Below are positions 6,006 through 55,394 of a stretch of 64,000 nucleotides of DNA, one piece after another. Location of the stretch: the NCBI GenBank assembly GCA_963779755.1, contig CAVZZO010000001.1, positions 672,001-736,000 on the forward strand. The letters run 5' to 3'. The notes under the pieces are model-generated. The model did no database searches, was not told the origin of the DNA, and worked only from the letters and a program-made list of their open reading frames with translations. Position numbers and translations under genes: made by a program. The stretch's first letter is position 1. Each line of letters starts with the position of its first letter. The stretch comes from an uncultured Gemmatimonadales bacterium (GTDB taxonomy: Bacteria; Gemmatimonadota; Gemmatimonadetes; Gemmatimonadales; GWC2-71-9).

Positions 6006-6159
6006 GGGGGGAAATATAGGGTTTGTGTCGGTTCCTGTCCCGCTTAGGGCCGGAGAAAGAGCACGCCGTCATTGCGAGGGCGCGCAGCGCCCGTGGCAAT
6101 CCCACCGCTTCCGGCGGGGAGCTCCCCACCTCACCGCTTGCTCCTCACGCTCACCGCCG

Positions 6160-6940
6160 ACCTAACCCCCTGTCCCCCTTCCCTGTTGGGAAGGGGGGAC
6201 CGGGACGACCAGTTCGAAGAGAAGGGGGAACCGGGACGGCCGATGTAAAAGAGGCTGTCACCCTGAGGCCGCGCCAGCGGCTGAAGGGGCCGAAGCTGGA
6301 GGATGGCTTCGGTCCCTTCGCTGCGCTCAGGGTGACAACCCCCTGTCCCCCTTCCCTGTTGGAAAGGGGGGACCGGGACGGGCGGTGCGAAAGGGCTGTC
6401 ACCCTGAGGCCGCATCAGCGGCCGAAGGGGCCGAAGCTGGAGGATGGCTTCGGTCCCTTCGCTGCGCTCAGGGTGACCTAACCCCCTGTCCCCCTTCCCT
6501 GTTGGGAAGGGGGGACCGGGACGACCAGTTCGAAGAGAAGGGGGAACCGGGACGGCCGGTGTAAAAGAGGCTGTCACCCTGAGGCCGCACGTGCGGCCGA
6601 AGGGGCCGAAGCTGGAGGATGGCTTCGGTCCCTTCGCTGCGCTCAGGGTGACCTAACCCCCTGTCCCCCTTCCCTGTTGGGAAGGGGGAACCGGGACGGC
6701 CGGTGCGAAAGGGCTGTCACCCTGAGGCCGCATCAGCGGCCGAAGGGGCCGAAGCTGAAGGACGGTTTCGGTCCCTTCGCTGCGCTCAGGGTGACCTAAC
6801 CCCCTGTCCCCCTTCCCTGTTGGGAAGGGGGAACCGGGACGGCCGGTGTAAAAGAGGCTGTCACCCTGAGGCCGCACGTGCGGCCGAAGGGGCCGAAGTT
6901 GAAGGATGGTTTTCGGCCCCTTCGCTGCGCTCAGGGTGAC
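6160..6940. repeat. Tandem array of ~5 composite palindromic (REP-like) units, ~140-175 bp
   Basis: TGTCACCCTGAG...CTCAGGGTGAC alternating with CCCCTTCCCTGTTGGGAAGGGG hairpins. Confidence 0.9.
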
Positions 6941-6999
6941 ATTACGCGCGCCGCCGGCGCTCATTGCCCGGGCGCGAGAGACACCCAGCGCCGCGATCC

Positions 7000-8027: not shown

Positions 8028-8400
8028 GCTCAGGGTGACCTGACCCCCCTGTCGCCCCTTCCCTGTCGGGAAGGGGGAACCGGCGCCGGAAACCCCGTCG
8101 TCCCGAACCCCGCGAGCAACGCGAGCGGGTGAGGGACCTGATGCGCGTGTCTGGAGGGCCGGCCACAGCGTTCCGGGTGCCTTGCCTGGCGTCCGAAGCG
8201 CGTGAAGCATATCCCTCTCTCGCTGCGCTCGCTCGGGATGACAGGCGCCCTTGAGCCAAGGGAGGGAGCCGCCTTGCGGCGGGGGCCACGCTTCGCTTGT
8301 CACCCTGAGGCCGCGCAAGCGCCCGAAGGGGCCGATGCTGAAGGCATGATTTCGGCCCCTTCGCTGCGCTCAGGGTGACATTACGCGCGGGCGCCGGCGC
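8028..8400. repeat. Degenerate copies of the 6160-6940 REP-like units
   Basis: ctcagggtgacc, cccttccctgtcgggaagggg, gtcaccctgagg...ctcagggtgaca. Confidence 0.75.
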
Positions 8401-8729: not shown

Positions 8730-8842
8730 CAGTAACAGAGATGTGGATTTCGCGGTCGGTCGTCCGATGGTCCCGGCTCATCTCGCGCCGCGCCTTTGGG
8801 AGCGGAGCCCAAGCGCCCCGCCGGTGCAAGCAGCTGTTAGAC
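8730..8842 (-). other. Terminal attC of array A
   Basis: R'' GTCTAAC-AGCTG-CTTGCACC; R' GTTACTG (only GTTA canonical). Confidence 0.7.
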
Positions 8843-8855
8843 GGACCGCACGATC

Positions 8856-9146
8856 CTATTCCACGGGGCCGATGCTCGCCCGACGCCCATGGATCACAGC
8901 CAACACGGTCACGACGTCGGCTTGTGGCCGATAGATGATGCGATAGGATAGCTCGAGCAGCTCGCGAAGATCAGAATTGGAGCGTTCGGGAACTGGTCGG
9001 CCGACATTGGGAAAGTCTCGCAGTTGACCGGCCCGGCGGACGAGTCGGTGCACTGTGAGGTTGGCATATAGAGGAGAGGTCAGGGCAATGTAGGCCCGAA
9101 TGGCCTCCAGATGGGCTTGGGCCGTCTCAGTCCAGAGGAGCCTCAC
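8856..9146 (-). CDS. RelE/ParE family toxin
   Basis: WTETAQAHLEAIRAYI...FPNVGRPVPE...LRELLELSYRIIY...LAVIHGRR. Confidence 0.92.
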   Translation of the reverse strand: MRLLWTETAQAHLEAIRAYIALTSPLYANLTVHRLVRRAGQLRDFPNVGRPVPERSNSDLRELLELSYRIIYRPQADVVTVLAVIHGRRASIGPVE

Positions 9147-9331
9147 GCCGGGAGACTAAACCGTTTCGCAACGTCCTCATGGGAAATCACTCGCCCGGCT
9201 TCGGCATCGGCCAGGCCGCTATCAATGGCCTGCTGAACGTGAATCTCGTAGAGCAGGTCGTCCCACGAGGCTTGCTCGGCCATTCGTTCTACGATCTGGC
9301 GAGCGCGTTGCTTGATATCGGGAGCTGACAT
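9143..9331 (-). CDS. Antitoxin of the RelE/ParE pair
   Basis: SWDDLLYEIHV...GLADAEAGRVISHEDV; 4-bp overlap with the toxin. Confidence 0.88.
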   Translation of the reverse strand: MSAPDIKQRARQIVERMAEQASWDDLLYEIHVQQAIDSGLADAEAGRVISHEDVAKRFSLPA

Positions 9332-9396
9332 GAATCCCTCCGGGGTGCCTGAAATATGGCGTCCTTCAGGCCTGATGCCAAATCCGAGGGCGGGCC

Positions 9397-9495
9397 GCCT
9401 AACGGTTGGCGGTTGAGCGGTGATCCGCGCTCACAATATGCCAGCCATCCGACTGGTGCGCGGGCGCGGTTGACCGCTCCAAGCGCGTGTTAGGC
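9397..9495 (-). other. attC site (99 bp)
   Basis: GCCTAAC-ACGCG-CTTGGAGC...GCTCAAC-CGCCAACC-GTTAGGC. Confidence 0.9.
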
Positions 9496-9523
9496 GGCGC
9501 GCACTGGCCGACAAGCACACAAC

Positions 9524-9901
9524 CTACCGAGCTGAGCCGTCTAGGCACGCTTGCAGCGGCGGTTCAGGTGATCCGAAGGCGATGCGAGCCCGCACATATT
9601 CGCGGTCCAAGAGGGTCGCTACCTCCAGCGTGGTTGAAGCCGTACTGCGAAGATCTGCTATGGAAGGGTCGAGACGATAGTTGACTCGCTGTCGCGCGGC
9701 TGTCAACACGGATCTTACTTGGGTGAGGATGCCAGTGACCGTGTCTCGAACTGGCACGAAGGGGACGGAGACTTCCGCAAGGCGGAAATGCGTGATGTGG
9801 AGGTCCGCTCTTGGTAGAAAGAACTCGATCACAGCGCTCATGGTTGACGCCGTTACGGATGTCAGCTTGGATAGGTCTCTCTTGCCAAACAAGCTATCCA
9901 T
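9524..9901 (-). CDS. Hypothetical protein or frameshifted C-terminus of the upstream protease
   Basis: 125-aa ORF overlapping the protease 3' end, ending before attC. Confidence 0.5.
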   Translation of the reverse strand: MDSLFGKRDLSKLTSVTASTMSAVIEFFLPRADLHITHFRLAEVSVPFVPVRDTVTGILTQVRSVLTAARQRVNYRLDPSIADLRSTASTTLEVATLLDREYVRARIAFGSPEPPLQACLDGSAR

Positions 9902-10749
9902 GAGGTGTCGCGAGTTGTCGAGGAGGTATGCGGCGGAGCAGAGATCCCTCCGGGCACTATCTGCCTGAGCAACGCGACGCGATCCTCGGGCTGCGCTGGG
10001 TGCAGCGTTAGCGATGACTGCGGGCGTGATGCGTTCGCGAAGACCTCAGCGAGGGAACGGGAACTGACAGTGCTGTCCAGAAGTGCAGTGGCATACCGTA
10101 CTGGGACGGCAAAATTCAGCGCTTGGCCGCCCTGGAGGTAGGCCGTCGAGATCGCAATGACCGCCCCAGAATCGTTGAGGACAGGGCCGCCGCTCGAGCC
10201 CGGGCTTATCGGCGCGGATATCTGCAGTAGCTGGCGGCCTTCGACCACGCGATGTGCGCTGACAATCCCGTCCGTGACTGTTTGTGATAGACCGAGAGGG
10301 CTGCCAATAGCAACGATACGGCTGCCCACGGGAGGAAGCGTGGTGCTGGTGGATAACGTCGGCAGACTGGCTCCACGGATCCTGATAATCGCTACATCTG
10401 CGGTTGGATCAGCAGCGAGTGCGGTGACGTTGCTGAAACGCTCGCCTGTTGCCAGAAGGACGGCAGCCGATGTGGCACCAGCCATGACATGATAGTTGGT
10501 GACGACCACTCCATCCGGGACTATAATGAAACCGCTCCCTTGTCCTACTGTGTCACCTCGCGCATCAACAGCGAGGATTGTAACTGTGGCCGGAATGGCG
10601 CGCTTCGCAAGTTGGACGGTAGTTAGAGGGCGCTGGGCTGCTGCCATGGCGCTATAGGCGACAAGGCCGACGAGCACCGCAGTCGTTCTGATCGCTGCTT
10701 GCAAGTATGAACTCCGAAGCGGGTAGGCGCCACTCGGTAGTTGAGGCAA
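9862..10749 (-). CDS. Trypsin-like (S1C/HtrA-type) serine protease; start uncertain
   Basis: GSGFII, VTNYHV, DVAII, ISPGSSGGP catalytic motifs. Confidence 0.88.
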   Translation of the reverse strand: MPQLPSGAYPLRSSYLQAAIRTTAVLVGLVAYSAMAAAQRPLTTVQLAKRAIPATVTILAVDARGDTVGQGSGFIIVPDGVVVTNYHVMAGATSAAVLLATGERFSNVTALAADPTADVAIIRIRGASLPTLSTSTTLPPVGSRIVAIGSPLGLSQTVTDGIVSAHRVVEGRQLLQISAPISPGSSGGPVLNDSGAVIAISTAYLQGGQALNFAVPVRYATALLDSTVSSRSLAEVFANASRPQSSLTLHPAQPEDRVALLRQIVPGGISAPPHTSSTTRDTSWIACLARETYPS

Positions 10750-10779
10750 CGCCGCGTGGCATCGGGGCCAGAGCGAGTA

Positions 10780-11061
10780 TCAAATGCAGGAGAACACATG
10801 TTCCTCTCGAAAATCAATAGCAGATCCTGCAGTGAGCCCTTTGAAGTCAGCGGCGTTCCAGTCTTCGAAGCCAATTATGGTGCCGGAGATCGCTCCTCCG
10901 AGAACACGCACTACTTGAACGACGAGGATAACCCGCCCGTCCCGAAGGGAGACTTGGGCACCAACACGGATGGTCGAAGGGACTGCCGTACCGGGAGCCT
11001 GAAAGCCCCCGAACACGATAGATCTGTCTGCACGGGTGGCGAGTGCAAGCGGTTCATTCAT
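10780..11061 (-). CDS. Hypothetical protein (cassette gene)
   Basis: 93-aa ORF MNEPLAL...HVFSCI. Confidence 0.6.
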   Translation of the reverse strand: MNEPLALATRADRSIVFGGFQAPGTAVPSTIRVGAQVSLRDGRVILVVQVVRVLGGAISGTIIGFEDWNAADFKGLTAGSAIDFREEHVFSCI

Positions 11062-11306
11062 GGGTCGCTTCGACTCCGAAGACTTTAGAATGCGGCTGAA
11101 TGCGATTTGGCACAATGCGGCTACTTGGCACCGGTACCCGACTGGGCTGTGAACCGGCGCGCGAGCTTCAAGTCCTTGTGCGCTTTATGCTTGCGTGTGA
11201 TCTTGTGATTCCTTGCTCGGGCAATGCGGCAAAAAAGAGGCCGGAGGCCGTGCGCGCATTTGCCGCGCGGTGTTGGGTGACTGCGTTTCGTACGAAAGGC
11301 CGCGCC

Positions 11307-11410
11307 GCCTAACGAAATGCGTTTCAGCCGCGAAGGCGCGGCCCTAGCGCCCGGAGGGCTTTTTTGAGCGGGTGCGCCGCGCCTTCGCCGTCTGCAAACG
11401 CTTGTTAGGC
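11307..11410 (-). other. attC site (104 bp)
   Basis: GCCTAAC-AAGCG-TTTGCAGA...GCTGAAA-CGCATTTC-GTTAGGC. Confidence 0.9.
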
Positions 11411-11709
11411 CTCCCGGCCAGCCGGCTCCGGCGACGTTCGGTCTCGACCCGATCGGCAAGGTACACCTTGAGCAGACTCTGATAGGGGACATCCCGCTCG
11501 TTGGCGAGCAACTTGAGCTCGGTAAGCAGGGTATCGGGCAGCCGGACCGAAATGGCTGTGGACGAAGGCCGGAGATGGGGAAAGCGCATCACCCGTGCCT
11601 TCGACCAATCCACATATTCGGTCGAGTCATGCGTGGCCCAGAAGTCGCGCTCCTCGTCCTCAGTCCGGAAGGTCGGGATGTTCTTCAATGCTCGCTTGGG
11701 CTTGGGCAT
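11344..11709 (-). CDS. BrnA-like antitoxin (RHH/CopG), C-terminus reads into attC
   Basis: IPTFRTEDEERDFWATHDSTEY...AISVRLP...DVPYQSLLK. Confidence 0.88.
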   Translation of the reverse strand: MPKPKRALKNIPTFRTEDEERDFWATHDSTEYVDWSKARVMRFPHLRPSSTAISVRLPDTLLTELKLLANERDVPYQSLLKVYLADRVETERRRSRLAGRPNKRLQTAKARRTRSKKPSGR

Positions 11710-12013
11710 ACTGGTGCCGCTCCTTCCGATTCATGTCCCGGGCCGCGATCACGCGAATCAGAGATCCGCGCACCGTGAAGACGAGGTAGAGCCTCCGGTT
11801 CGCGAGGGTCCGGCCGAGCGCTTGCCACCGGAGCTCGGTGCCGGAGTGCTTCGCATCGAATGCGGCGACCAGAGGTTCCTGAAAGAACGCCTGTTCGCAC
11901 TCCCCCGGCTCCACGTTGTGGCGCGCCAGCACTTTGGGCGCGTTGCCGGCGTCCCATTCAAAGCCGGTGCAGCGGCCCAGAATCGCGTAGGCGTCCGGCG
12001 GCTCTCCCGTCAC
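11660..12013 (-). CDS. BrnT family toxin
   Basis: FEWDAGNAPK...H..ECEQAF...RWQALGRT...VFTVRG..IRVIAAR. Confidence 0.92.
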   Translation of the reverse strand: MTGEPPDAYAILGRCTGFEWDAGNAPKVLARHNVEPGECEQAFFQEPLVAAFDAKHSGTELRWQALGRTLANRRLYLVFTVRGSLIRVIAARDMNRKERHQYAQAQASIEEHPDLPD

Positions 12014-12019
12014 TCAGGA

Positions 12020-12048
12020 AGTATATGTGGGGTATATACGCCAGTCAA
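12020..12048 (-). promoter_or_regulatory. Sigma70 promoter of the BrnT/BrnA cassette
   Basis: TTGACT-17 bp-TATACT, 6 nt before the GTG (leaderless); GTATATAC palindrome in the spacer. Confidence 0.8.
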
Positions 12049-12071
12049 CCGGTAGGCTCCGCCATCCGGAG

Positions 12072-12203
12072 GCCTAACGAAGTGCGCGTCAGCTGCAGCG
12101 CGATGCTTTAGGTCTTCACAAACTACGCTTCCTTAGCCGCGCCGCTAGGAACTCCGGATGATGCGACCGGCCCGCGCGACTGGCCTGCCAGCTGGACGCG
12201 CTC
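12072..12203 (-). other. attC lacking its R'' box (R'' displaced to 14789-14795)
   Basis: GAGCG-CGTCCAGC...GCTGACG-CGCACTTC-GTTAGGC; homologous to the attC at 16001-16140. Confidence 0.85.
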
Positions 12204-12658
12204 ATGTACGCGGATCCTTTCGGGCTGCTTGCCCAGGATTGTTGTATCGAAACGGGGGATTGGCGAAAGGATAACCTGCTTCACCCTGCTGTTACAGCGG
12301 CAAGAGAGACAACCCGATGCTGGGAGTAGCTGTGGGTCTCCTGGCCGTTGCAGGTGGGGCCGAACTGGCTGCTCCCAGGTTATTTGCCGCGGCCACCGCT
12401 GCTCTTCCTAAGGTACCGTTTGAGAAATTCCAGGACTGGGGACGAAATGTTGTCCAATGGGGCCGTGGGGCAGCGGGGGCAATTCAGCGGGTTTCTGAAG
12501 TGACGGCCGAGCAGGCCTCTAAATTGGATCCACAGAAAGTGAAGATGGCTCGCGACTTCTACCAGAAAGCTGTTGATGCTGGCCGAGGGGGAGCCGCCGC
12601 ACCTGAACGAGTAAAGCTGATGGAACGCATTTTAGACCTGCAGCAGAGAACCCATTAG
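12204..12658 (+). CDS. Orphan Rhs C-terminal toxin tip (DUF4951-like), one apparent frameshift
   Basis: Starts MYADPFGL (Rhs DPxGL); removing 2 nt in the GA repeat at ~12305 joins ORF 12317-12658 (WGRG..GA..R...RDFY...ER..LM.RI). Confidence 0.65.
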
Positions 12659-12705
12659 TGGCTCGGTCCGGTCTATTCGAGCATTGCAACACGGAGGAAG
12701 AGCCA

Positions 12706-12953
12706 TGCTGGAAGCAGCGGTCACACTTCGGCTTACGAATAGATGCGAAACTGCGCGGAAGCTCGTGATTGAGCCATGGACCACCGAGTTTCGACTGCAA
12801 CCTGGGCACACTTACGACTTGGTGATATCAGGGGACCTTGGCCTCCCCTTAGAGGTTGAGTTCGAGGACGACGAACTAACCGTATACACTTTCGATTCCG
12901 CCAATGCCTCCTTCAAGATTTCCGAAGGCGGGGCTGAACTTAAACCACTGTAG
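12706..12953 (+). CDS. Putative immunity protein
   Basis: 82-aa acidic ORF directly after the toxin tip, GGAGG upstream; its stop codon lies in the IS end. Confidence 0.55.
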
Positions 12954-13437
12954 GAGCCCGGCCCTGTCTAGCCTGGGGCGCTCGGGGCGCCTCCGGGTTG
13001 TCGGGCCTGAACTCCGAGGGGTCGGGTCTAGTAGGAGCCTCGCGGGCTGCCGCGCGTGGCGGACCTCGGCCGGCGGAAAAGGAAAGTGGTGGGGGCCCCA
13101 CGAGTTCAGCGGAACCCATCGGCTCCAGACCTGCCGCGAGCCGGCTCCCTCGTCGGGCGTCATGCGCCCACGGGAGCAGACGGGGTCACCCCACCGGCTC
13201 CAAGGTGCTACCCGGTCCTTCGATTGTCAAAGAGCGCCGCGTTCCGCGTGCCGGCGGGATCCTGGCACCACCCTCATAGGTCGTTGAGGCTCGGGGCCTC
13301 CCACATCTTCATGGATGCTCTCCGATCCGCGGCCGGGCGGCCAGCAACTCTGTGCGCGGAACTCACCGAAGACGCCGGCGGCTCAAGGCAAATAGAGGGC
13401 GGCCCGGCGCGCACGCGCGGCTCCCCCCGGTCTCCGA
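12950..13437 (-). ncRNA. Putative bridge/seek RNA region (exact boundaries unknown)
   Basis: Non-coding end contains the donor-junction 14-mer (13026-13039) and candidate target guides (13277-13283, 13232-13237). Confidence 0.65.
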
Positions 13438-14703
13438 CTATTCGATCACCACCGGCTCTGCGTGATGCCGCTGGGTCTCCCAGCGCTCCCGGTCGAACGG
13501 CTGGCCCGACTGGAGCACGGCCAGGAGGAGCGGCACCAGCTTGCGGGCCACCGCGCAGACCGCCTTGGTCCGGAGCCCGCCATTGCGGGCCAGCAGGGCC
13601 TGGTAGACCCCGGTACAGCCCCCGGGGCTGGCACCAGCGGCCGCCGAGCAGAAAGAGTTGGCGGCGCAGCAACGGCCGGCCCCGTTTGGACTGCTTGCGC
13701 CGGCCCTGCACCGTGCCGCTGGAGCGCTCGACCAGATTCATGCCTGCGAGTTTCAGCACCTGGCGGGGATGAGTGAAGCGCTCCGGAGCGCCCAGCTCGG
13801 CCACGATCGTGGCCGCACAGGTGGCGCTCACCTCGGGAATGGTGGTCAGCGCCTTGGCCGCGGGGCACTGCTCCACCGAGCGCGGCGATCTGCTGGTCCA
13901 CCTCCGCGAGTTGCGCCCGCAGCAGGTCCCAGCGGGCCAGCAGCTGCTGGATCTCCAGCGCCGCTCGGGAGCGGCGCCGGCCAGGGCGACACTGGTGCGG
14001 GCGGACTCGCGCAGGACGTGGAGCTGCCCTGGGCTCACGTGGCCCCGCGAGACGGACCGCGCCAGGCGAGTCACCGCGGCCGGGGCGGCCGCCAGGAAGT
14101 CCTGCGGCAGCGGCCAGCGCGCCAGCAGGGCGCGCGGCGTGGGCTTGCGCACCTGCGAGAAGTGCGTCAGGAACTCGGGCCAGGCCAGGTCGAGCAGGCT
14201 CTGGAGACGGTTCTTGAACCGGGTTTCCTCGACGGTGAGCCGATGACGGTGGGTGGTGAGCAGCCGCAGCTCGAGATACGGGGGCTGCAGCGCCGGATAT
14301 CCCACGAAGATCCCCAGGCTCACCAGCTTGCAGATCTCGGCGGCATCCTTCGCGTCCGTCTTGTTGGGGCTGTTATCCTCCAGTTCCTTGGCCCGCTTGG
14401 TGTGGGCCGGCAGGATATTGACCAGCGCATAGCCGCGCGCCCGCAGGCACTCGGCAAACGTGAAGCCGTGATGGCCGGCGAACTCCAGCCCCACCAGCAT
14501 CTGGCCGGGCCGGATGCCGGGAAACCAGGCCGTCAACTGCGCGCGGCGGCCTCGAAGCCCGCGCGGCTCACCGGCACTCGGACCGGCTTCGTGCGGCGCC
14601 CATCGGGGCCCTGAGCAACCAGCACGTGGACCCGCTTCGCGGTATCCACGCCTACGTGAACGGGGAACGTGCGGGCATAGGCAGACTTTTCGTCGGGGGT
14701 CAT
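13438..14703 (-). CDS. IS110 family recombinase/transposase (about 4 apparent frameshifts)
   Basis: VGVDTAK, VGLEF, NKTDAKDA (DEDD); LTTIPEVS; LAGMNLVERSSG; SKRGRPLLR; AVARKL. Confidence 0.92.
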
Positions 14704-14789
14704 GGCGCGGCTCCGGGTGGAGGGAATCACAGGAGTCGCGGAAGGAGCTACGGGCCGCGCAGCGGCGTCAAGCGGGTATAGATGTCTAG

Positions 14790-15530
14790 TTAGGTAGCAC
14801 CACGAATCAGACGGCGGCCGTGAGGAGTGAGTTCCGCGTGTCTGACGCTCCCAATCTGGTAGTCCCCGGGACCTCCTGTGGTAATGATTCCGAGGTCTTT
14901 CAAGCCGCGCAAGATCAGATCAAGTCGCGCAACCGGGATGCCCGTCACCTCAAGCACCGTGGTCGTGTGAAGTCGGTACTGGTCTGGCGTCAGGGTGCGG
15001 AACTGGGCAAGTACCGCAGCCACCTCGGCGGCCGAGTCCACATCTGGGAGTAGCGACGGAGCAAGGGCGATGTATGTGCCAGGCACGAGGCGCGTTCGCG
15101 CGATTCCGACAGCGTGATTCAAGTCTGGATCAATACGAATGAAGCCGAAATCGCGAAGATCCTCCGCTGCCTCCAAGTACTCATGCGGCGAAACATCCAA
15201 ATCGGTAATGGCATCCTCTGCTTCAGCAAACTGGAACAGCTGGCTGGCCTCGCGATAGAGGCAGTAGGCCAGCAACCGCAGGGGCGTACCAGAAAGGCGG
15301 ACGAATGGAACTTGAATTGCTTCGAGCGCGGTCACGCGCTCTTCGAGACTGCCAACCCGGACACCGAGTTTCGATACCTGCTCATTCGCTACGCCGTAGC
15401 CGCCCAGGGCGGCAAGACGCGCTACCAAGGACGCCACGCCCGAAATCGGCTCGACAACCAAGGCCACGCCAGTGAGTGTCCACGCAGCGATGGTCGGCCA
15501 ATCGAGGCTCGAATCCTTTGCTGAGGTCAT
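14790..15530 (-). CDS. Hypothetical protein (hydrophobic N-terminus, possible winged-helix domains)
   Basis: MTSAKDSS... 246 aa, GAGG RBS, stop inside R'' ACCTAAC. Confidence 0.8.
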   Translation of the reverse strand: MTSAKDSSLDWPTIAAWTLTGVALVVEPISGVASLVARLAALGGYGVANEQVSKLGVRVGSLEERVTALEAIQVPFVRLSGTPLRLLAYCLYREASQLFQFAEAEDAITDLDVSPHEYLEAAEDLRDFGFIRIDPDLNHAVGIARTRLVPGTYIALAPSLLPDVDSAAEVAAVLAQFRTLTPDQYRLHTTTVLEVTGIPVARLDLILRGLKDLGIITTGGPGDYQIGSVRHAELTPHGRRLIRGAT

Positions 15531-15545
15531 CCCGCCTCGTAGTGC

Positions 15546-15685
15546 TACTAACGAAGTGCGTTTCAGCGGCGGCGCGATGCCCCGCTCCCTCACATCCGAC
15601 GCTTCCTTACCGCGACCGCTAGATGTCCCAGAAATGCACCAGCGGGCTGCAGCACCGTGCCCGCCGCTGCAAACGCTTGTTAGCT
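15546..15685 (-). other. attC site (140 bp)
   Basis: AGCTAAC-AAGCG-TTTGCAGC...GCTGAAA-CGCACTTC-GTTAGTA. Confidence 0.9.
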
Positions 15686-16000
15686 GCCGGCCGCAATGAC
15701 AATTTCGGGTGCGATGACGCTGCCGGTATGTGCGGAGCCCCCGCGCCGGGAGACCGGGCCGCCAACCGGGAGCCTCGGCGGGGCGGGAGAACGCTGGACG
15801 CCTCCGAACCTGCTCGGCGCACCTTCCTTGCCATGGAGCGCCCCGCGGAGAGAAACCTTGGGCGGCATCGCGGAGCCTTCCAGGCGTCCCGCGCAAGGAG
15901 GCCGGTGCCGCCTCACCGCTACCAACCAACTGCAGAGTTCCGGCGGCACCACCAGGCGCCCACCAAGAGATCAGCACTGGGCGGCCCGACTGGCGCGTGC
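15686..16000 (-). other. Gene-less cassette body, diverged copy
   Basis: Homologous to 17950-18262 with frame-breaking indels. Confidence 0.75.
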
Positions 16001-16140
16001 AGCTAACGAAGTGCGCGTGTGCTGCAGCGCGATCCCTCAGGATTTCACAAACCTACGCTTCCACAGCCGCACCGCTAGGAGGCCCGAGTGGGGGCCGGCG
16101 GCCCGCGCGACCGGCCTGCAGAACGACGCGCTTGTTAGGC
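16001..16140 (-). other. attC site (140 bp)
   Basis: GCCTAAC-AAGCG-CGTCG...CGCACTTC-GTTAGCT. Confidence 0.85.
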
Positions 16141-17228
16141 CCCGCGGATTCATATACTAAGTGCAACAACGGAAGGCGACGAAAGCGGTGATCTGACAGC
16201 AAGTAGACTTCTCTGTCCGCCAAGACAAGGAAGCCGACCATGAACTACCGCCAGATCACCGCCGCTGAACGGTACACCCTCGGCCTGCTTCGCCGACAGG
16301 GGCTGACGGCGGCAGCCATCGCGCGCCTCCTCGGTCGCCACCGCAGCACCATCGGCCGCGAGGTCCGGCGCAACCGCACCCACCACGACGGGGGCTACCG
16401 CCCCCAGCTCGCCGACTGGTACGCGCGGGGCCGGCGGAGCCACTCGCGCCGCAACACCCGGTTCACCGCCACGGATTGGGCGGAGGTGGAACGCCTGGTG
16501 CGCGAGGACTGGAGCCCCGAACAGATCGCCGGCCGCCTCGCCGCGGACGGACACCTCGCCATCAGTCACGAGACGATCTATCGGTACGTCTGGGCGGACC
16601 GCGCGGACGGCGGCACGCTCTACCAGCACCTCCGCGGCGCCCGCAAGCAGCGCCGCAAACGGTACGGGCGCTACGACAGCCGGGGCCGCCTGGCCGGGAA
16701 GCGGATGATCACGGAGCGGCCTGCGATCATCGAAGGCCGCAGCCAGGTCGGTCACTGGGAAGGCGACACCGTCCTCGGCGCGGGACAGGCCGGCCCCTGC
16801 GTGCTGACGCTGGTGGAACGGAAGACCGGCTATCTGATGCTCGGCCAACTCCACCAGCGGACGACCACCGCCGTCACGCGCCGGGCGACCCAGCTGATTC
16901 ATCGGGAAGCTCGCCCGGTGCGCACCATCACCGTGGACAACGGCACCGAGTTCCATGACTACGCGGCGATCGAACGGGAGACCGCCACGCGCTTCTACTT
17001 CGCCACGCCGCACCACAGCTGGGAGCGCGGAACCAACGAGAACACCAACGGCCTGCTGCGGCAGTACCTCCCGAAAGGCCACTCTATGGCGCACCTCACC
17101 CAGGCCGCGTGTGATCGCCTCGCCCGCAAACTCAACCGCCGACCCCGGAAGCGCCTCCTCTACCGCACCCCGGAGGAATGCTATGCACGATGAGGCTCAG
17201 TGTTGCACTACAAACTTGATATCAGACG
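16141..17228 (+). mobile_element. IS30 family insertion sequence
   Basis: Imperfect IRs ...TCATATACTAAGTGCAACA / TCAAGTTTGTAGTGCAACA; GC (or GGC) direct repeat. Confidence 0.88.
16240..17193 (+). CDS. IS30 family transposase
   Basis: WSPEQIAG, ISHETIY, GHWEGD, TVDNGTEF, WERGTNENTNGLLRQYLPKG. Confidence 0.97.
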   Translation: MNYRQITAAERYTLGLLRRQGLTAAAIARLLGRHRSTIGREVRRNRTHHDGGYRPQLADWYARGRRSHSRRNTRFTATDWAEVERLVREDWSPEQIAGRLAADGHLAISHETIYRYVWADRADGGTLYQHLRGARKQRRKRYGRYDSRGRLAGKRMITERPAIIEGRSQVGHWEGDTVLGAGQAGPCVLTLVERKTGYLMLGQLHQRTTTAVTRRATQLIHREARPVRTITVDNGTEFHDYAAIERETATRFYFATPHHSWERGTNENTNGLLRQYLPKGHSMAHLTQAACDRLARKLNRRPRKRLLYRTPEECYAR

Positions 17229-17229
17229 G

Positions 17230-17799
17230 CTATTGAGAGCGACATTGGAGGCCCTCGCCCGTCAGCGCTCGGAGGACCTTCAGCATGCGCTGATCATCAC
17301 GCGAGCAAAAGACCTCGGGATTGTCCGCTCCGGCCGCACCACTTGCTCCGTCGAATCGCCATTCTAGAAGGAAGGAGCGGCCATCATCCACTAGGAAGAT
17401 GGAAGGTTCCTGCGGCGCGGGCGGTAGCTCGCGTAAGCCTGCGCGCTGTGCCGCAGCAATTCGACTCTCCCAGTTGGCCGAGTCGGGCAATGCCTGATGG
17501 AACGGTACGTGCGCTGTATTCGTTGCGTACTCCTCGGCATGCCAACGCCGTCCCTCCAGCAGGAACCGGTACAGGCGGATGCCAGTGAGGCCGAAGCCAT
17601 CCCACAGGCGAATCTCCGCGTCTACACCAGGGCGCGAATCCGCAATACTGGGTAGAGCTAGGTTGCGAGCGAGTTCTGTGGCATACGGCGAGAGTTCCGC
17701 AGCCCCTGCCCGCGTCGAGCGCGGACTCGGTTGCTGCCCAGCGGCGACCGCGGTTGGCAGCGCCAGGAGCCCGAATATGAAACTCAGTCGGATCGCCAT
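17230..17799 (-). CDS. Hypothetical exported protein (cassette gene)
   Basis: 189 aa with signal-peptide-like N-terminus, starts just after R'. Confidence 0.8.
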   Translation of the reverse strand: MAIRLSFIFGLLALPTAVAAGQQPSPRSTRAGAAELSPYATELARNLALPSIADSRPGVDAEIRLWDGFGLTGIRLYRFLLEGRRWHAEEYATNTAHVPFHQALPDSANWESRIAAAQRAGLRELPPAPQEPSIFLVDDGRSFLLEWRFDGASGAAGADNPEVFCSRDDQRMLKVLRALTGEGLQCRSQ

Positions 17800-17807
17800 A
17801 TCAGTCC

Positions 17808-17949
17808 GCCTAACGGTCTGCGTTTCAGCGGCGGCGCGATGCCCCGCTCCCTCATAATCCTACGCTTCCTTACCGCGACCGCTAGATGTCCGAGCAATGC
17901 ACCAGCGGCCTGCAGCACCGTGCCCGGCCGCTGCAAACGCTTGTTAGCT
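17808..17949 (-). other. attC site (142 bp)
   Basis: AGCTAAC-AAGCG-TTTGCAGC...GCTGAAA-CGCAGACC-GTTAGGC. Confidence 0.92.
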
Positions 17950-18723
17950 GCCGGCCGCAATGACATTCTCGGTTGCGATGACGCTGCCGGCAGGTGCGGA
18001 GTCCCCACCCCGGGAGGCCCGGCCGCCCCCTCGGAGCTCCGGCGGGGCGGAAGATCGCTGGACGCTTGTCCACCGGGAACGACGCTGACCCTGCCCCGAC
18101 CGCCCCGCGGGGAGGGGCCCCGGGCGGCATGGCGGAGCCTGCCAGACGACCCGCGCAAGGAGGCCGGTGCCGCCTCACCTCCGCCAACCAGCTGAGGAAC
18201 TCCGGCGGCACCACCAGGAGCCCACCAAAAGATCAGCACTGGGAGGCCCGGCTGGCGCGTGCAGCTAACGGTCTGCGTTTCAGCGGCGGCGCGATGCCCC
18301 GCTCCCTCATAATCCTACGCTTCCTTACCGCGACCGCTAGATGTCCGAGCAATGCACCAGCGGCCTGCAGCACCGTGCCCGGCCGCTGCAAACGCTTGTT
18401 AGCTGCCGGCCGCAATGACATTCTCGGTTGCGATGACGCTGCCGGCAGGTGCGGAGTCCCCACCCCGGGAGGCCCGGCCGCCCCCTCGGAGCTCCGGCGG
18501 GGCGGAAGATCGCTGGACGCTTGTCCACCGGGAACGACGCTGACCCTGCCCCGACCGCCCCGCGGGGAGGGGCCCCGGGCGGCATGGCGGAGCCTGCCAG
18601 ACGACCCGCGCAAGGAGGCCGGTGCCGCCTCACCTCCGCCAACCAGCTGAGGAACTCCGGCGGCACCACCAGGAGCCCACCAAAAGATCAGCACTGGGAG
18701 GCCCGGCTGGCGCGTGCAGCTAA
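17814..18723 (-). repeat. Two tandem, apparently identical 455-bp gene-less cassettes
   Basis: Period 455 (17808 vs 18263); no credible ORF. Confidence 0.9.
18263..18404 (-). other. attC site (142 bp)
   Basis: Same as 17808-17949; R' GTTAGCT. Confidence 0.92.
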
Positions 18724-18760
18724 CAAATATTGGACCTGCGTACCTCCCATTGAACTCCCG
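18718..18760 (-). other. attI site of integron A
   Basis: CAGGTCCAATATTT-GTTAGCT; cassette homology stops at the GTT; no attC hairpin upstream. Confidence 0.8.
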
Positions 18761-18775
18761 ACCAACCAGAAATTC

Positions 18776-18804
18776 ATCTTACGGTCCGCAGTCTAATTCC
18801 ACAA
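18776..18804 (-). promoter_or_regulatory. Putative Pc promoter
   Basis: TTGTGG-17 bp-TAAGAT pointing to attI. Confidence 0.65.
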
Positions 18805-18806
18805 CA

Positions 18807-19784
18807 TCACCCCGTCTGGCCCAGCAGGTCCGCGGGACTCCGTACCCCCAGGCCGCCCCGGTTCAGGACATGGGTGTAGATCATCGTGGTCGAGACATCC
18901 CGGTGGCCCAGGAGCTCCTGTACGGTCCGGATGTCGTAGCCCGCCTCCAGCAGATGCGTGGCAAAGCTGTGCCGCAGGGTGTGACAGGTCGCCCGTTTGC
19001 CGATACCGCTGGCCCGCACCGCCTCCGCCATGGCCCGCTGCACTGCGGTCTCGTGGTAGTGATGCCGGCGCAGCTGCCCCGAGGCCGCGTGACGATGCCG
19101 CCGCCGAGCCGGAAAAACCCACTGCCAGGGCCAGGAGCATCCCGCTCGCGGATACTTCCGCTCCAGGCCATCGGGGAGCTCGACCCAGCCCGCCCCCTCA
19201 GCCAGATCCCGCCGGTGCCGCTCCCGCACCCGCTCCAGGTGGAGATGCAACGGCTGACGCACCGACTGCGCCAGGACGGTGACCCGATCCTTGGCGCCTT
19301 TGCCTCGGCGCAGCCGTATCTCCCCCCGTTCCAGGTCCAGATCCTTGACCCGCAAGGTGAGGCACTCAAGCAGCCGCAGGCCACTGCCATAGAGCAGGGC
19401 GGCTACCAGCGCCGAGACGCCACGCAGGTGTGCCAGTACGCTCCGGACTTCTCCCGGCGTCAGCACGACCGGCAGGCGCACCGGAGCCTTCGGCCGGGGA
19501 ATGCTCCCCATGTCCACCAATGGCCGCTCCAGGACCTCGGAGAAAAGGAACGAGAGGGCCGCCTGCGCCTGCGCCTGAGTTGAGGCGGAAACGTGCCGCT
19601 CGATGCGCAGATCGGCCAGGAATTGGAGTACTTCTTCCCGCCCCAGTTCCGCCGGAGGACGGAGGCCGTGAAACCGCACAAACCGCCGAACCCAGCCCAC
19701 GTAGGCCTCCTCGGTCCGCGGGCTGAAGTGCCGTAGCCGCAGGTTGAGCCGCAGGGCCTGCAGCAGTTTCGGTTTGGACTGCAT
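18807..19784 (-). CDS. intI: Integron integrase
   Basis: [16 protein letters not shown], IntI-specific [14 protein letters not shown]...[29 protein letters not shown]. Confidence 0.97.
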
Positions 19785-19892
19785 GAGAGTATCCCCGCGG
19801 AAATCCACAAGCTTGATCCGCGACGCCTTTCCACCCGTACCCCGCCAATGCCGAGAGGACCGAAAACGCCCGCGAACTCCTCCCTTGTGTAT

Positions 19893-36178: not shown

Positions 36179-36235
36179 TGCTTCTTGCCATGCGCGGTGA
36201 TGCCTCCTTCGCGGCGGATAACTCCCGGAGGGGGA

Positions 36236-36695
36236 ACACAGATTACGCAGATCAAAAAGGGATTACACAGATTTGCCCCGATCGACGGCGCAGCTTCGCG
36301 GAGCGTTGCCGAGATCCCCAACATACAAGAATCAGATTCTTTTGGGGTGCGCCGGCATGCTCTGGCGGAGCCTCACCCAGGGAACGGAGACCAATCTGCG
36401 TCACTCTGCGTAATCTGCGGTTGCAGTTTGCTCGATCCAACCTTTTCAGGAACACCTCCGGGTCCTACGCGGTGGCGGCTCCTTCCCGGCGGATAACTCC
36501 CGGAGGAGGAACACAGATTACGCAGATTAAAAAGGGATTACGCAGATTTGCTCCGATCCGCCGCGCAGCTCCATGGAGCTGCGCCGGGGATTCACACTAC
36601 TGATTCTTTGTTGTTGTTCTTGAGTGGGCGGGATCTGGATCGGAGGGCTGACCCGGCACGGGATCAATCCGTGTAATCTGTGTAATCTGTGGATT
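36236..36695. repeat. ACGCAGATT-type repeat cluster
   Basis: Two ~275-bp related units with inverted CAGATT/AATCTG arms. Confidence 0.85.
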
Positions 36696-36803
36696 CACGA
36701 TGAACAGCTTTCCGGGCGCGTGAACTCCTGGCGCCCATGTAGTCCGTGCCCGAGCCGCTCCAGGAGTCCAGGCGCAGCGCCGAGCGTCGCCGGCCCGCCC
36801 GAC

Positions 36804-37106
36804 TCAGAGCGCTGCCCCGAAGTACAGCCACCAGATGCCCGCCAGCAGGATGGCCGCGCACGCCGTCACGATGAACGGCCAGGTCTGCCAGCCCGCCCAG
36901 GGGCGCGGCTCCGTGACCAGCCCCCACGCCGATCCGGCCAGCGAGAGCAGGGCCGCCAGGAGCAGGACGGCGCCCAGATGACTGGAAAGCCCGCTGGCGC
37001 CACCACTGCCCTCGGAGAGCGAGCCGGCCAACGAGATCAAAGGGCCGACCACCAGAAGCGGCGCCAGAGCGAGCAGAAGGGGAAGGGCACGGGAACGGGC
37101 GCGCAC
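36804..37106 (-). CDS. Small membrane protein
   Basis: AGGAGG RBS then GTG; three hydrophobic segments. Confidence 0.6.
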   Translation of the reverse strand: MRARSRALPLLLALAPLLVVGPLISLAGSLSEGSGGASGLSSHLGAVLLLAALLSLAGSAWGLVTEPRPWAGWQTWPFIVTACAAILLAGIWWLYFGAAL

Positions 37107-37136
37107 GGCGAGCACCTCCTGGGTCCACAGGGTACG

Positions 37137-38940
37137 TGATCCACAGATTACGCTGCGGACCCTGACGGCAGCCCTGGTACCTGACGGCCGGCGCAGGTCC
37201 GTTTGTGATCCGCAGATTGCGCAGATTGCGCAGATTTTGCTCCAATGCTTGCAGCACTCCGCAGAGCGTTGCCGGGCGACGTACAACGAACAACTGGTTC
37301 TTCTTTTTGTGGGTGCCTGGGCCGGCATCGGAGCACGGCCCGCGCCGGGAACCATCTGCGTAATCTGCGTAATCTGTGGATCAACAATTCGGATCTGTCC
37401 CGATCACCGAGCCCGAGGGACCGGCTGTGGAGCCCTGCCGGCAGGTGCCTGGGCCGGCATCGGAGCACGGCCCGCGCCGGGAACCATCTGCGTAATCTGC
37501 GGATCAACAATTCGGATCTGTCCCGATCACCGAGCCCGAGGGACCGGCTGTGGAGCCCTGCCGGCAGCCTTGGCACAGGGGGGTCAGCGCAGGTCCGTTT
37601 ATGTGATCCGCAGATTGCGCAGATTACGCAGATTTTGTTCCAATGCTTGCAGCACTCCGCAGAGCGTTGCCGGGCGACGTACAACGAACAACCGGTTCTT
37701 CTTTTTGTGGGCGCCTGGGCCGGCATCGGAGCGCCACCCGGTCTGGGAAGCCATCCGTGTAATCTGTGTAATCTGTGGATCAACAATTCGGATCTGTCCC
37801 GATCACGGAGCCCGAGGGACCGGCTGTGGAGCCCTGCCGGCAGCCTTGGCACAGGGGGGTCAGCGCAGGTCCGTTTATGTGATCCGCAGATTACGCAGAT
37901 TACGCAGATTTTGTTCCAATGCTTGCAGCACTCCGCAGAGCGTTGCCGGGCGACGTACAACGAACAACCGGTTCTTCTTTTTGTGGGCGCCTGGGCCGGC
38001 ATCGGAGCGCCACCCGGTCTGGGAAGCCATCCGTGTAATCTGTGTAATCTGTGGATCAACAATTCGGATCTGTCCCGATCACGGAGCCCGAGGGACCGGC
38101 CGTGGAGCCCTGCCGGCAGCCCTGGTACAGCGGGGTCACCGCAGGTCCGTTGATGTGATCCGCAGATTACGCAGATTTTGTTCCAATGCTTGCAGCACTC
38201 CGCAGAGCGTTGCCGGGCGACGTACAACGAACAACCGGTTCTTCTTTTTGTGGGTGCCTGGGCTGCATCGGAGCGCCACCCGGTCAGGGAAGCGATCCGT
38301 GTAATCTGTGTAATCTGTGGATCAACAATTCGGATCTGTCCCGATCACGGAACTCGAGGGACCGGCCGTGGAGCCCTGCGGGCAGCCCTGGTACAGCGGG
38401 GTCACCGCAGGTCCGTTTATGTGATCCGCAGATTACGCAGATTGTGCTCCAATGCTTGCAGCACTCCGCAGAGCGTTGCCGGGCGACGTACAACGAACAA
38501 CCGGTTCTTCTTTTTGTGGGTGCCTGGGCTGCATCGGAGCGCCACCCGGTCAGGGAAGCGATCCGTGTAATCTGTGTAATCTGTGGATCAACAATTCGGA
38601 TCTGTCCCGATCACGGAACTCGAGGGACCGGCCGTGGAGCCCTGCGGGCAGCCCTGGTACAGGGGGGTCACCGCAGGTCCGTTTATGTGATCCGCAGATT
38701 ACGCAGATTACGCAGATTTTGCTCCAATGCTTGCAGCACTCCGCAGAGCGTTGCCGGGCGACGTACAACGAACAACCGGTTCTTCTTTTTGTGGGTGCCT
38801 GGGCTGCATCGGAGCGCGGCCCGGTCGTTGAATCAATCCTCGTAATCTGCGTAATCTGCGGTTGCACCACACACAACCGACCCTTTCACGGATCCGTGCG
38901 ACCGAGCTCGCGGAGCCGATCTGCGTAATCTGCGGATCAG
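37137..38940. repeat. Tandem array of ~266-276-bp units with ACGCAGATT inverted arms
   Basis: gtgatccgcagatt recurs at ~37205, 37603, 37879, 38155, 38421, 38688. Confidence 0.92.
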
Positions 38941-39335
38941 ATAGACGTCGCCGCCCGCCGGCCGATCCAGGCGCCCATGGCAGATCCCGCCAGGCCGAGC
39001 ACGGCGCCCAGCATCCCCAGCAGCAGCACCGTCATCAGGCGGGCTTCGACGGATGTCGTGGCGTATAGCTCCGCCATCCCGGCCGACCCGAGCAGGGCCG
39101 ACAGCGGCCAGCCCACGGCCGCCTCGATCGCCCCGGTAGTGGCGCCGACCACGGCACCGGCCCACCAGCCCACCCGGTATCCCGCCAGCAGGCCGGCCGC
39201 GAAGTAGAGTACATAGGAACCGGGAGCCAGCAGGCTGTAGTTGAAGCCCAGAGCTCTTGCCCCCAGGGCGCCCAGCGCGTCGAAGACCAGGATGACGGCC
39301 GCGGCTTGCAGGATGGTGAAAAGCACGGATCGCAT
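38937..39335 (-). CDS. Small membrane protein
   Basis: GGAGG RBS; four hydrophobic Gly-rich segments. Confidence 0.75.
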   Translation of the reverse strand: MRSVLFTILQAAAVILVFDALGALGARALGFNYSLLAPGSYVLYFAAGLLAGYRVGWWAGAVVGATTGAIEAAVGWPLSALLGSAGMAELYATTSVEARLMTVLLLGMLGAVLGLAGSAMGAWIGRRAATSI

Positions 39336-44918: not shown

Positions 44919-45017
44919 GCCGAAGGTAACACTGTCATTGCGAGCCGCGGAGCTGCGAAGCAATCCCCCTGGGCTGCGCCGGGAGCCCCTGCGCCTCGCA
45001 GGGCTGTTCATCAGGAA

Positions 45018-46456
45018 TCCACAGATTTCACAGATTGCGCAGATTGGCTCGGTGCGCTTGCGGCGCTTCGCCAAGGCCTGCCAGTATCCCCAGAAGAAAC
45101 TCGTTGTCTTTGTTGGGAGCGCAGGGCAACGCTCCATACGCCTGGTTCCCGGGCGTCGTGGCGCGGGGAAGGCTACCGGATCACGGGGGAACCGCAGATT
45201 ACGCAGATGTACGCAGATTTGGCTCCGTTCGCCTGCAGCGATCCGCCAAGCCTCGCCTCACGCCAACAAAACAGAAGATTCGTTGTTTGCTGGGAGCGCA
45301 GGCAAGGCTCCATGGAGCTGCGCCGACAGACGAGGCAATCTGCGTACATCTGCGTTCAATCTGCGTAATCTGTGTTCCCCCTCCGGGAACCCAGCCGTGC
45401 AAGGAGCCCGGGACGTAACCGACGCTTCGCCCTGGTTGGCCGACCTGGCCGATTGATTGAGACCGCAGATTACGCAGATTACGCAGATTTGGCTCCGTTC
45501 GCCTGCAGCGCTCCGCCAAGCCTCGCCTCACGCCAACAAAACAGAAGATTCGTTGTTTGCTGGGAGCGCGGGCAACGCTCCATGGAGCTGCGCCGGCAGA
45601 CGAGGCAATCTGCGTACATCTGCGTTCAATCTGCGTAATCTGTGTTCCCCCTCCGGGAACCCAGCCGTGCAAGGAGCCCGGGACGTAACCGACGCTTCGC
45701 CCTGGTTGGCCGACCTGGCCGATTGATTGAGTCCACAGATTTCACAGATTACGCAGTTTTGGCTCGGTTTGCCTGCAGCGATCCGCCAGGCCTCACCTCA
45801 CGCCAACAAAACAGAAGATTCGTTGTTTGCTGGGAGCGCAGGCAACGCCCCATGGAGCTGCGCCGGCAGACGAGGCAATCTGCGTACATCTGCGTTCAAT
45901 CTGCGTAATCTGTGTTCCCCCTCCGGGAACCCAGCCGTGCAAGGAGCCCGGGACGTAACCGACGCTTCGCCCTGGTTGGCCGACCTGGCCGATTGATTGA
46001 GTCCACAGATTTCACAGATTACGCAGTTTTGGCTCGGTTTGCCTCAAGCGATCCGCCAAGCCTCACCTCACGCCAACAAAACAGAAGATTCGTTGTTTGC
46101 TGGGAGCGCAGGCAACGCCCCATGGAGCTGCGCCGACAGACAGGGCAATCTGTGTACATCTGCGTTCAATCTGCGTAATCTGTGTTCCCCCTCCGGGAAC
46201 CCAGCCGTGCAAGGAGCCCGAGACGTAACCGACGCTTCGCCCTGGTTGGCCGACCTGGCCGATTGATTGAGTCCACAGATTTCACAGATTACGCAGTTTT
46301 GGCTCGGTTTGCCTGCAGCGATCCGCCAAGCCTCGCCTCACGCCAACAAAACAGAAGATTCGTTGTTTGCTGGGAGCGCAGGCAACGCCCCATGGAGCTG
46401 CGCCGGCAGACGAGGCAATCTGCGTACATCTGCGTTCAATCTGCGTAATCTGCGGT
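45018..46456. repeat. Tandem array of 270-bp units with ACGCAGATT inverted arms
   Basis: gattgattga at 45451, 45721, 45991, 46261. Confidence 0.95.
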
Positions 46457-46518
46457 TCCCTCTTGGTAGCCGCCGCGGCCCAAGGGCCCGAGGTCGCGAT
46501 GGCCCCGGCGCCCCGGGC

Positions 46519-53656: not shown

Positions 53657-53819
53657 GGATTCCTGACGGGGACTCTAGGGATGCCGCGAAGCCCGACTGC
53701 GGTCATCCAAGACTTATTAAGAGAGATTAAAGGTTTCAGGAAGGCGCGATGAAGGCTCCTTAAAGCCGCAGATTCGCTCCGCCGATGAACGCCGTGCTAC
53801 CAGTCGGCGGTCCGGCGGT

Positions 53820-54600: not shown

Positions 54601-54839
54601 GGGGTCCGCCGACCGGCTGCGGACCCCGCCGGGACGCTGGGATCCATGCGATCCCGTGCCGGGCCCACCCTGCTCCTGCCGGCCGTCAGCGCCTCCGTCG
54701 GGAATACGGTGAGGCCGACGCCGATCTAGAAGGGGAGAGGAGGCGATATCCCCCAGAAGCGGGCTAGAAGCCAAGGAAAAGCCAAGGGGCCGGAGACGGC
54801 CGCTGTGGACTTTCTTTTCCCCCAACTAAAGGAGCGAGG

Positions 54840-55349: not shown

Positions 55350-55394
55350 TTTTCAGGCGAATCATGGAGACTAGCGGACCCGCTGTAGACACTG

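Follow-up and report, generated by a model that had tools for sequence, protein, structure and literature searches.

The window analysed here is a stretch of 64,000 nucleotides (nt) from the genome of an uncultured Gemmatimonadales bacterium. At 12203-14785 it contains one 2.6-kilobase (kb) unit, made up of a gene for an Rhs-type C-terminal toxin tip, a small open reading frame (ORF), a 485-nt non-coding region and a minus-strand IS110-family transposase gene (Table 1). The tip begins directly at a junction with an integron attC site, and this part of the first-pass annotation is borne out: the ORF starts at 12204, the preceding codon is Leu, and the sequence adjoins attC. ORF 12204-12329 translates as MYADPFGLLAQDCC..., and upstream of it the frame meets a stop at 14 codons. 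The DNA there is attC, which is why the Pro of the PxxxxDPxGL motif is absent, and the tip is not fused to an Rhs core at this place.

The two ORFs of the tip are one frame-shifted gene, whose counterpart in a sister copy of the unit in the same genome (C3:374447-377040) is an unbroken ORF of 151 amino acids (aa). The break had been ascribed to a 2-nt slip in a GA run (~12303-12308), which is incorrect; one base is missing just after 12292 relative to two sister copies. The 3′ ORF, 12317-12658, lies two frames on and matches Pfam PF16309 (E 3.7e-8, 33.8 bits, cut-off 27.3), so the DUF4951 label proposed for it earlier was right, and the intact sister ORF scores 32.7 bits. The small acidic ORF reported downstream is also present (12705-12953), with ~15 Asp/Glu against 7 Lys/Arg by manual count from the translation.

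Table 1. Features of the 2.6-kb unit in the window and its three sister copies on contig C3
Feature	Position	Strand	Remarks
Left part of split attC	12072..12200	.	129 nt; starts GCCTAAC, ends ...GGACGCG
CT dinucleotide, probable recombination core	12201..12202	.	Same CT at 14786-14787 and at both sister-copy junctions
Element terminus and 5′ piece of tip	12203..12329	+	(CT)C ATG TAC GCG GAT CCT TTC GGG CTG = (L)MYADPFGL; stop 12327-12329
Frame break in tip	12292..12293	+	1 base fewer than both sister copies (MAFFT alignment, three copies)
3′ piece of tip	12317..12658	+	Hydrophobic Gly/Ala-rich linker, then DUF4951 domain
Small acidic ORF, putative immunity gene	12705..12953	+	82 aa counted from ATG
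Non-coding region 3′ of transposase	12954..13437	-	Candidate guide segments 13026-13035 and 13052-13057
IS110-family DEDD transposase gene	13438..14730	-	Broken by several indels
Transposase-proximal element end and second CT	14731..14787	-	...GGGTATAGATGT; common to 4 copies
Right remainder of split attC	14788..14795	.	A GTTAGGT, directly after ...GGGTATAGATGT CT
Sister copy	C3:374447-377040		Intact DUF4951 tip (151 aa); intact 431-aa transposase, NF033542 195.3 bits (cut-off 140)
Sister copy	C3:380922-383506		Tip and transposase genes both broken
Sister copy	C3:366171-368788		Same 25-nt terminus (CATGTACGCGGATCCTTTCGGGTTG); different 178-aa tip; different 78-80-aa membrane ORF; intact transposase

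The architecture of the flanking DNA shows what the unit has interrupted. Positions 12072-12202 are a close homologue of the intact 138-nt attC at 16003-16140 but lack the final GTTAGG box at this end; the 12072-12200 portion is ~80% identical to that attC and to some 45 attC copies on contig C3. Window and intact attC align as far as ...GACGCGCT, after which the former reads CATGTACGCGG and the latter TGTTAGGC. The missing end lies at 14788-14795, beyond the transposase gene, and a single attC has therefore been split by the 2.6-kb unit; left part and right box together make a 139-nt attC, compared with 138 nt for the intact copy. The junction had been taken for a cassette boundary with integron cargo, a view that fails because the rest of the same attC is found 2.6 kb to the right, on the far side of the IS110 transposase. 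The element ends are fixed only to 2-3 nt, and the insertion point adjoins the CCTAAC/GTTAGG box; as candidate subterminal inverted repeats the ends show, by eye, no more than a weak 6/9 match. The transposase gene has 485 nt of non-coding DNA on its 3′ side as against only ~55 nt on its 5′ side. Its window ORF scores 119.9 bits, under the NF033542 cut-off of 140, and an Rfam scan of the window at gathering thresholds gave 0 matches. The inverted repeat at 12072-12116 was considered as a complete 45-nt attC and ruled out, since the intact homologue at 16003-16140 shows a site of ~138 nt. A simple scan for attC pairs was too strict (1 site), as was a later genome-wide count of attC ends.

The window region was searched with BLAST against the 4.23-Mb genome and the junctions were then inspected. 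Three further units were found on contig C3, within a large attC array at ~364-405 kb, bringing the total to four. The four units occupy four different attC sites, at the same attC position and with CT at both junctions but with different flanks. The 25-nt terminus is present in 4/4 copies, as is the YxDPFGL start, while the cargo behind it is of two kinds. The three DUF4951-type cargoes differ at 4 columns and their small ORFs are identical; the second cargo (C3:366171-366937, corresponding to L016:272-1037) encodes a 178-aa tip with no Pfam match and a small protein with two hydrophobic stretches. Comparison of the four transposase bodies over 1844 columns shows 32-101 differences, arranged as a mosaic, and the transposase at C3:374447-377040 retains both Pfam domains, DEDD_Tnp_IS110 and Transposase_20. 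Judged by its sequence, the window copy is a dead relic, of value as a pointer to this family. Elsewhere in the window, a solo 144-nt fragment (1507-1650) is 100% identical to 14651-14794 and abuts GTTAGGC at 1645-1651; it is a remnant of a further insertion into another attC.

A related element in the same genome occupies a different kind of target. The Rhs array (C3, 1.487-1.549 Mb, 13 core-end matches) holds a transposase 39-40% identical to that of the attC units, together with a tip and a following ORF, and this unit splits an Rhs core end. The order is ...GGGAATCCG GT, a YTDPFGL tip, a 161-aa ORF, non-coding DNA and finally the transposase; past its end, GT CGCGTTTCGTGATCCG... encodes the VAFRDPFGL of an older tip. 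GT is found at both junctions, and joining the two flanks yields an intact core end.

Relatives in other genomes follow the same plan. A scan based on transposase alignment, with one genome per species, gave 66 loci, nearly all from metagenome-assembled genomes (MAGs) of Gemmatimonadota; the 44 with at least 2200 nt beyond the transposase gene were searched for DPxG[LMIVF] at +1000 to +2200. The motif occurs antisense in 29/44, against 2/44 for the sense-strand control. Separated by transposase identity, it is present in 29 of the 35 loci at ≥35% (control 2/35) and in 0/9 below 35%, and also in 10 of 11 loci with a flank of 1300-2199 nt. Fifteen of the 29 tips are preceded in frame by an Rhs core motif. 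A second tip lies within 500 nt before the transposase start in 22/44 loci (≥35% identity, ≥500 nt upstream), compared with 0/44 on the sense strand, and the peptide preceding these second tips is the translated element end. Ten tips terminate open Rhs frames of 632-896 aa that reach the edge of the locus. The YxDPFGL terminus is kept across transposases of 35-100% identity and preserves the reading frame with the Rhs core, and in none of the scanned loci is the small ORF separated from the non-coding region by a remnant of an Rhs core.

The cargo itself is highly variable. The 38 tips from other loci are all different, and among 39 tips (these and the second tip of this genome) five reach a Pfam cut-off, for PT-TG, DUF4329, Ribonuclease, Peptidase_M23 and Ntox10. 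In L045, a locus from another MAG with a transposase 65% identical, the unit again sits in an attC whose parts lie outside the transposase and tip ends: GCCTAAC-T-AG marks one end of the element, and past a different YTDPFGL tip the attC resumes and runs on to GTTAGGC. In L051, L053, L067, L072, L088 and others, a further element end stands before the tips that lie beyond the transposase, an arrangement that, as read from these sequences, indicates tandem arrays of transposase, tip and immunity units.

The non-coding region carries segments that resemble a bipartite guide. In the intact attC-type copy it contains CCTAACTAGAC, which is identical to the attC box, the core and the first bases of the other element end, and 24 nt before this lies ACGCGC, matching the other attC half. 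The Rhs-array copy (C3:1486105-1487346) has ACGCGACAC and AATCCG at the equivalent places, matching its own two flanks. Among 34 loci with a mapped junction, the locus's own junction 9-mer (flank, core and element end) occurs exactly in its own non-coding region in 14; the controls gave 14/1098 for foreign regions, 0/34 for the reverse complement and 0/34 for an internal 9-mer. This junction-anchored test replaced one of ≥9-nt words shared by upstream and non-coding regions, which was rejected as 1579/1980 mismatched pairs were positive by chance, exact-word matches being frequent by chance in G+C-rich DNA. A second match, of 6-10 nt, is to the flank past the tip and is located 24-37 nt upstream of the first; its sequence is ..GATCCGG in elements that target Rhs and ACGCGC in the one that targets attC. 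Since this second match is to the flank past the tip, it places the tip inside the element. In three soil runs from one study, the second tip type follows the shared terminus on one contig, and on another the damaged base of the window's guide segment is intact; since the runs could derive from the source sample, they do not count as independent evidence.

The cargo of the window copy belongs to a wider family of Rhs C-termini. A search of 1.84 billion representatives returned 103 homologues of the DUF4951 part at E≤1e-3, and in most of these rows the match is the C-terminal end of the protein, P0087 being an exception. Among 24 homologues read, 16 have a DPxG core end just upstream, for example ...GDPVNFSDPFGL, which, like the window tip, continues with a linker and a stretch rich in Gly/Ala; two have an ...LVHN motif, which we take to be of PT-HINT type, and six are short. 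One metagenome homologue, L106, is an Rhs frame of >1400 aa that ends in the DUF4951 domain. The earlier proposals that homologues would be Rhs C-termini, and that the window ORF starts at the Rhs core/toxin boundary and is thus an Rhs-type tip, are supported by these proteins.

A shared downstream gene had likewise been anticipated, and it is found. Seven metagenome loci encode DUF4951 tips, and in all six with downstream DNA the next gene is an 83-105-aa homologue of the small ORF; these loci include the >1400-aa Rhs frame and the PT-HINT-type protein. The small proteins are 23-47% identical, and EPW is an invariant motif in them, in most cases as LEPW. This conserved pairing is, at the sequence level, the pattern of a toxin/immunity pair. 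The relatives of the small ORF came solely from DNA beside tip homologues, a word-index search having returned only the query itself, and ESM Atlas matches were limited to clusters without names (tip part 0.77, small ORF 0.93). In 400 other genomes of the phylum the DUF4951 tip query found none at E≤1e-5, and neither tip nor small ORF occurs in any other transposase locus examined. An AlphaFold2 model built from 52 sequences shows residues 68-150 as a five-helix bundle with a predicted local distance difference test score (pLDDT) above 94, the first 65 residues being unstructured. The only structural relative is PDB 2MMB (Foldseek E 1e-2, probability 1.0; VIA Z 11.2 over 86 residues; profile E 1.4e-6), an uncharacterised Acinetobacter baumannii protein, and apart from it Foldseek and VIA gave no match to a fold of known function. 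W86 is invariant and R136 is conserved at ≥90%, with no acidic residue or His at 90%.

Taken together, these observations lead us to consider, with a probability of roughly 78%, that the window contains a decayed IS110-family element of IS1111-type layout, which carries an Rhs-type tip and a small immunity gene as cargo, was inserted into attC by a guide RNA, and has relatives that swap Rhs tips. In the proposed mechanism, the transposase, together with a guide RNA encoded in the non-coding region, would excise and insert the whole unit, presumably through a circular intermediate. In Rhs genes, the insertion point of the relatives would lie in the codon directly after the Pro of PxxxxDPxGL, between its second and third bases; the element would supply x-[YF]-x-DPFGL, a new tip and its immunity gene. 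The incoming tip would thereby continue the reading frame of the Rhs core, and the previous tip would end up orphaned on the far side of the transposase. The window element would have been placed just inside one GTTAGG/CCTAAC box by a guide RNA matching that box. The lineage of this genome appears to have been retargeted to attC, and because its guide segments match attC, its tips would be parked unfused in integron arrays. The ATG at the terminus may permit translation of the tip on its own.

The broader proposal is that an RNA-guided IS110 clade has an exchangeable tip and immunity gene built in and acts as an agent of Rhs C-terminal displacement in Gemmatimonadota, with one lineage moved to attC through its two guide segments; we give this somewhat better than an even chance. 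The first-pass annotation had read the breakpoint at the toxin boundary as a link between tip exchange and integron/IS110 recombination. The IS110 half of that idea holds, the unit recurring at four attC sites and the tip motif in 29/35 loci, whereas the integron half does not, as there is no sign of integrase action and one attC is split. If correct, the proposal would offer a concrete mechanism for the exchange of toxin tips between bacteria, in which the recombinase travels with the tip and its immunity gene. It would also describe a natural retargeting from an Rhs codon to an integron attC by way of two short guide segments, linking two gene-shuffling systems, and a dedicated place for cargo in what are the smallest RNA-guided mobile elements known. 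DUF4951 and an unnamed family of small EPW-motif proteins would be assigned to a putative toxin/immunity pairing.

Several points weigh against this interpretation. In the window copy, indels have damaged the tip, the transposase and the non-coding region, where the first guide segment is one base short of the intact sister, and for this reason no function is demonstrable from it. The 35% identity split was chosen after the data had been seen, and the loci are mostly MAG contigs of related bacteria and hence not independent. An exact guide match is lacking in 20/34 loci; the second match is short, and the similarity of Rhs flanks to one another weakens its mismatched control. RNAs of the guide region fold no better than shuffled sequences (z +1.5 and -0.8), and the public runs containing the stretch, which consist of fragmentary soil contigs without the joints, yielded no circle junction, empty site or transcript. 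Five loci (L037, L041, L049, L060 and L079) have a CT core at the transposase end and GT at the Rhs side, a difference that could, speculatively, be caused by heteroduplex at a mismatched core, and one lineage (L054-type) is offset by 1 nt. The terminus in L045 has no ATG, and the DUF4951 domain has no known activity or obvious catalytic residues.

That last property bears on whether the cargo is a toxin at all. DUF4951 might instead serve, for instance, as an adaptor or plug, and the small ORF might encode a chaperone in place of an immunity protein: the domain spans only ~85 aa, the residues conserved at the levels given above are W86 and R136 and include no acidic residue or His, and no enzymatic fold was matched, the sole structural relative being the uncharacterised 2MMB. 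Its place at the extreme C-terminus after DPxG in Rhs proteins and after a PT-HINT-type motif, the co-varying small ORF tightly paired with it in 6/6 loci, and the recognised toxin families that occupy the same slot in sister elements make this unlikely. We regard as very improbable the possibility that integrase-type recombination at the toxin boundary joined the tip and small ORF to attC as cargo of the integron, with the IS110 copy as a separate neighbour. A true integrase is encoded at 18810-19808 and attC sites flank the region, but the module has no attC of its own, splits one whose last box lies past the transposase, and carries its genes antisense to the cassette array; moreover, the same unit, from tip to transposase, is present at three more attC sites of this genome and in a second genome.

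The extent of the mobile unit can also be questioned. It might comprise only the 1.84-kb transposase body, with the Rhs core end as its target and the cargo carried along a few times by accident through sloppy end recognition; the Rhs arrays would then reflect no more than a preference for that target. Growth of IS110 loci by half-matched ends is described in the available text of a preprint (bioRxiv 10.64898/2026.08.14.744561), and cargo and body do have different histories here (4 columns against 32-101 of 1844, with mosaicism). Yet no copy with a body-only boundary was found, 4/4 full copies and L045 end at the tip, and the loci scanned contain no Rhs core remnant between small ORF and non-coding region. 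The YxDPFGL terminus is also kept at 35-100% transposase identity with its frame to the Rhs core maintained, and we consider a body-only element quite unlikely.

The three ingredients of this interpretation, namely attC-targeting IS1111-type elements, cargo-bearing IS110 elements and Rhs C-terminal displacement, are each already known; our literature search found no paper that links them. In IS1111-type elements, as described in the available sections of PMC11187229, an RNA from the region 3′ of the transposase matches both target strands, the top-strand match coming first. The IS1111-attC group discussed in the same sections (ISKpn4, ISPst6, ISPa25) resembles the window element in its DEDD transposase, its long 3′ non-coding region with target matches and its insertion at an attC end. 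The window element differs in that it is 2.6 kb long, has two protein genes between the guide region and the end, and has relatives that target Rhs genes instead of attC. Within a plasmid collection, no IS110-family gene exceeds 33% identity to its transposase, and on the strength of this low identity attC targeting looks independently acquired. Tetu & Holmes 2008 and Post & Hall 2009 are said to be the founding papers of the IS1111-attC group.

The 'expanded' IS110 elements of Hu et al. (bioRxiv 10.64898/2026.08.14.744561) are similar, in the text available, in having extra genes within their boundaries and in repeated insertion into occupied loci. Their cargo is described there as consisting mainly of resistance genes and plasmid DNA, acquired because recognition of the ends is flexible, whereas the slot of window-type elements is fixed, exchangeable and in frame from the element terminus. 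The main text of that preprint mentions neither Rhs, toxin, attC nor integron; its supplements, which might list toxin cargo, lay outside this search. Rhs displacement, according to the accessible part of Jackson et al. 2009 (PMC2935791), replaces the old tip with a new tip and immunity gene and leaves an orphan downstream. Host recombination was assumed in that model because no recombinase was known to travel with tips (PMC2935791, same part). In window-type elements, by contrast, a dedicated site-specific recombinase travels with the tip, and displaced tips have no core remnant and are preceded by an element end. The window unit shares with an integron gene cassette its position in a cassette array beside attC sequence. 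Unlike a cassette, it has no attC of its own, interrupts one, lies antisense to the array and has CT-bounded ends in place of a GTT crossover. The DUF4951 domain matches its Pfam model and superposes on 2MMB, and the setting described here adds that the domain is a putative polymorphic-toxin C-terminus with a conserved partner. Among the titles examined, the literature search found nothing closer than the 2026 cargo preprint and none on IS110 with an Rhs toxin; it also found no paper with both bridge RNA and Rhs, nor any mentioning DUF4951.

The host array of the window unit is part of a chromosomal integron at 8730-19808, with attC sites at 9397-9495, 11307-11410, 16003-16140 and 17808-17947. 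Its integrase gene, 18810-19808 on the minus strand, matches TIGR02249 with 425 bits (cut-off 265), and the cassette genes, among them BrnT/BrnA, a trypsin-like protease and RibD_C, share the integrase strand. By our own reading, an extra base in the 3′ arm of the attC stem identifies the plus strand as the bottom strand; from this and the cassette strand it follows that the tip and small ORF are antisense to the array. The BrnT/BrnA toxin-antitoxin cassette lies immediately left of the split attC, at 11344-12013 (PF04365 69.5 bits; CopG_antitoxin 108 bits). The cassette beside the element is filled by a 395-aa minus-strand ORF, 14790-15977, with no Pfam or NCBIfam match. The array at ~364-405 kb on contig C3 is a second and much larger one, with some 45 matches to the same ~130-nt attC family as in the window.

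Other repeated and mobile sequences are present in the window. An IS30-family transposase gene (16240-17190; NF033563, 293 bits) directly follows the attC at 16003-16140, and ~70 nt at 16131-16200 recur twice elsewhere on contig C1, in one case at its end. Between the array and the integrase, cassette-end sequence forms direct repeats (15660-16078, 17810-18109, 17924-18340, 18265-18564 and 18379-18795), which include a 300-nt stretch that is repeated with 100% identity 455 nt apart. At 6159-6950 and 8298-8389 there are 5-6 copies of a unit of ~140-175 nt that contains a long palindrome (TGTCACCCTGAGG...CCTCAGGGTGACA) and resembles a miniature repeat element. Large arrays of 254-276-nt tandem units occupy 36200-38950, 45000-46600 and 53750-56300, and in each unit a 9-nt CGCAGATTA-like repeat occurs in runs, in both orientations.

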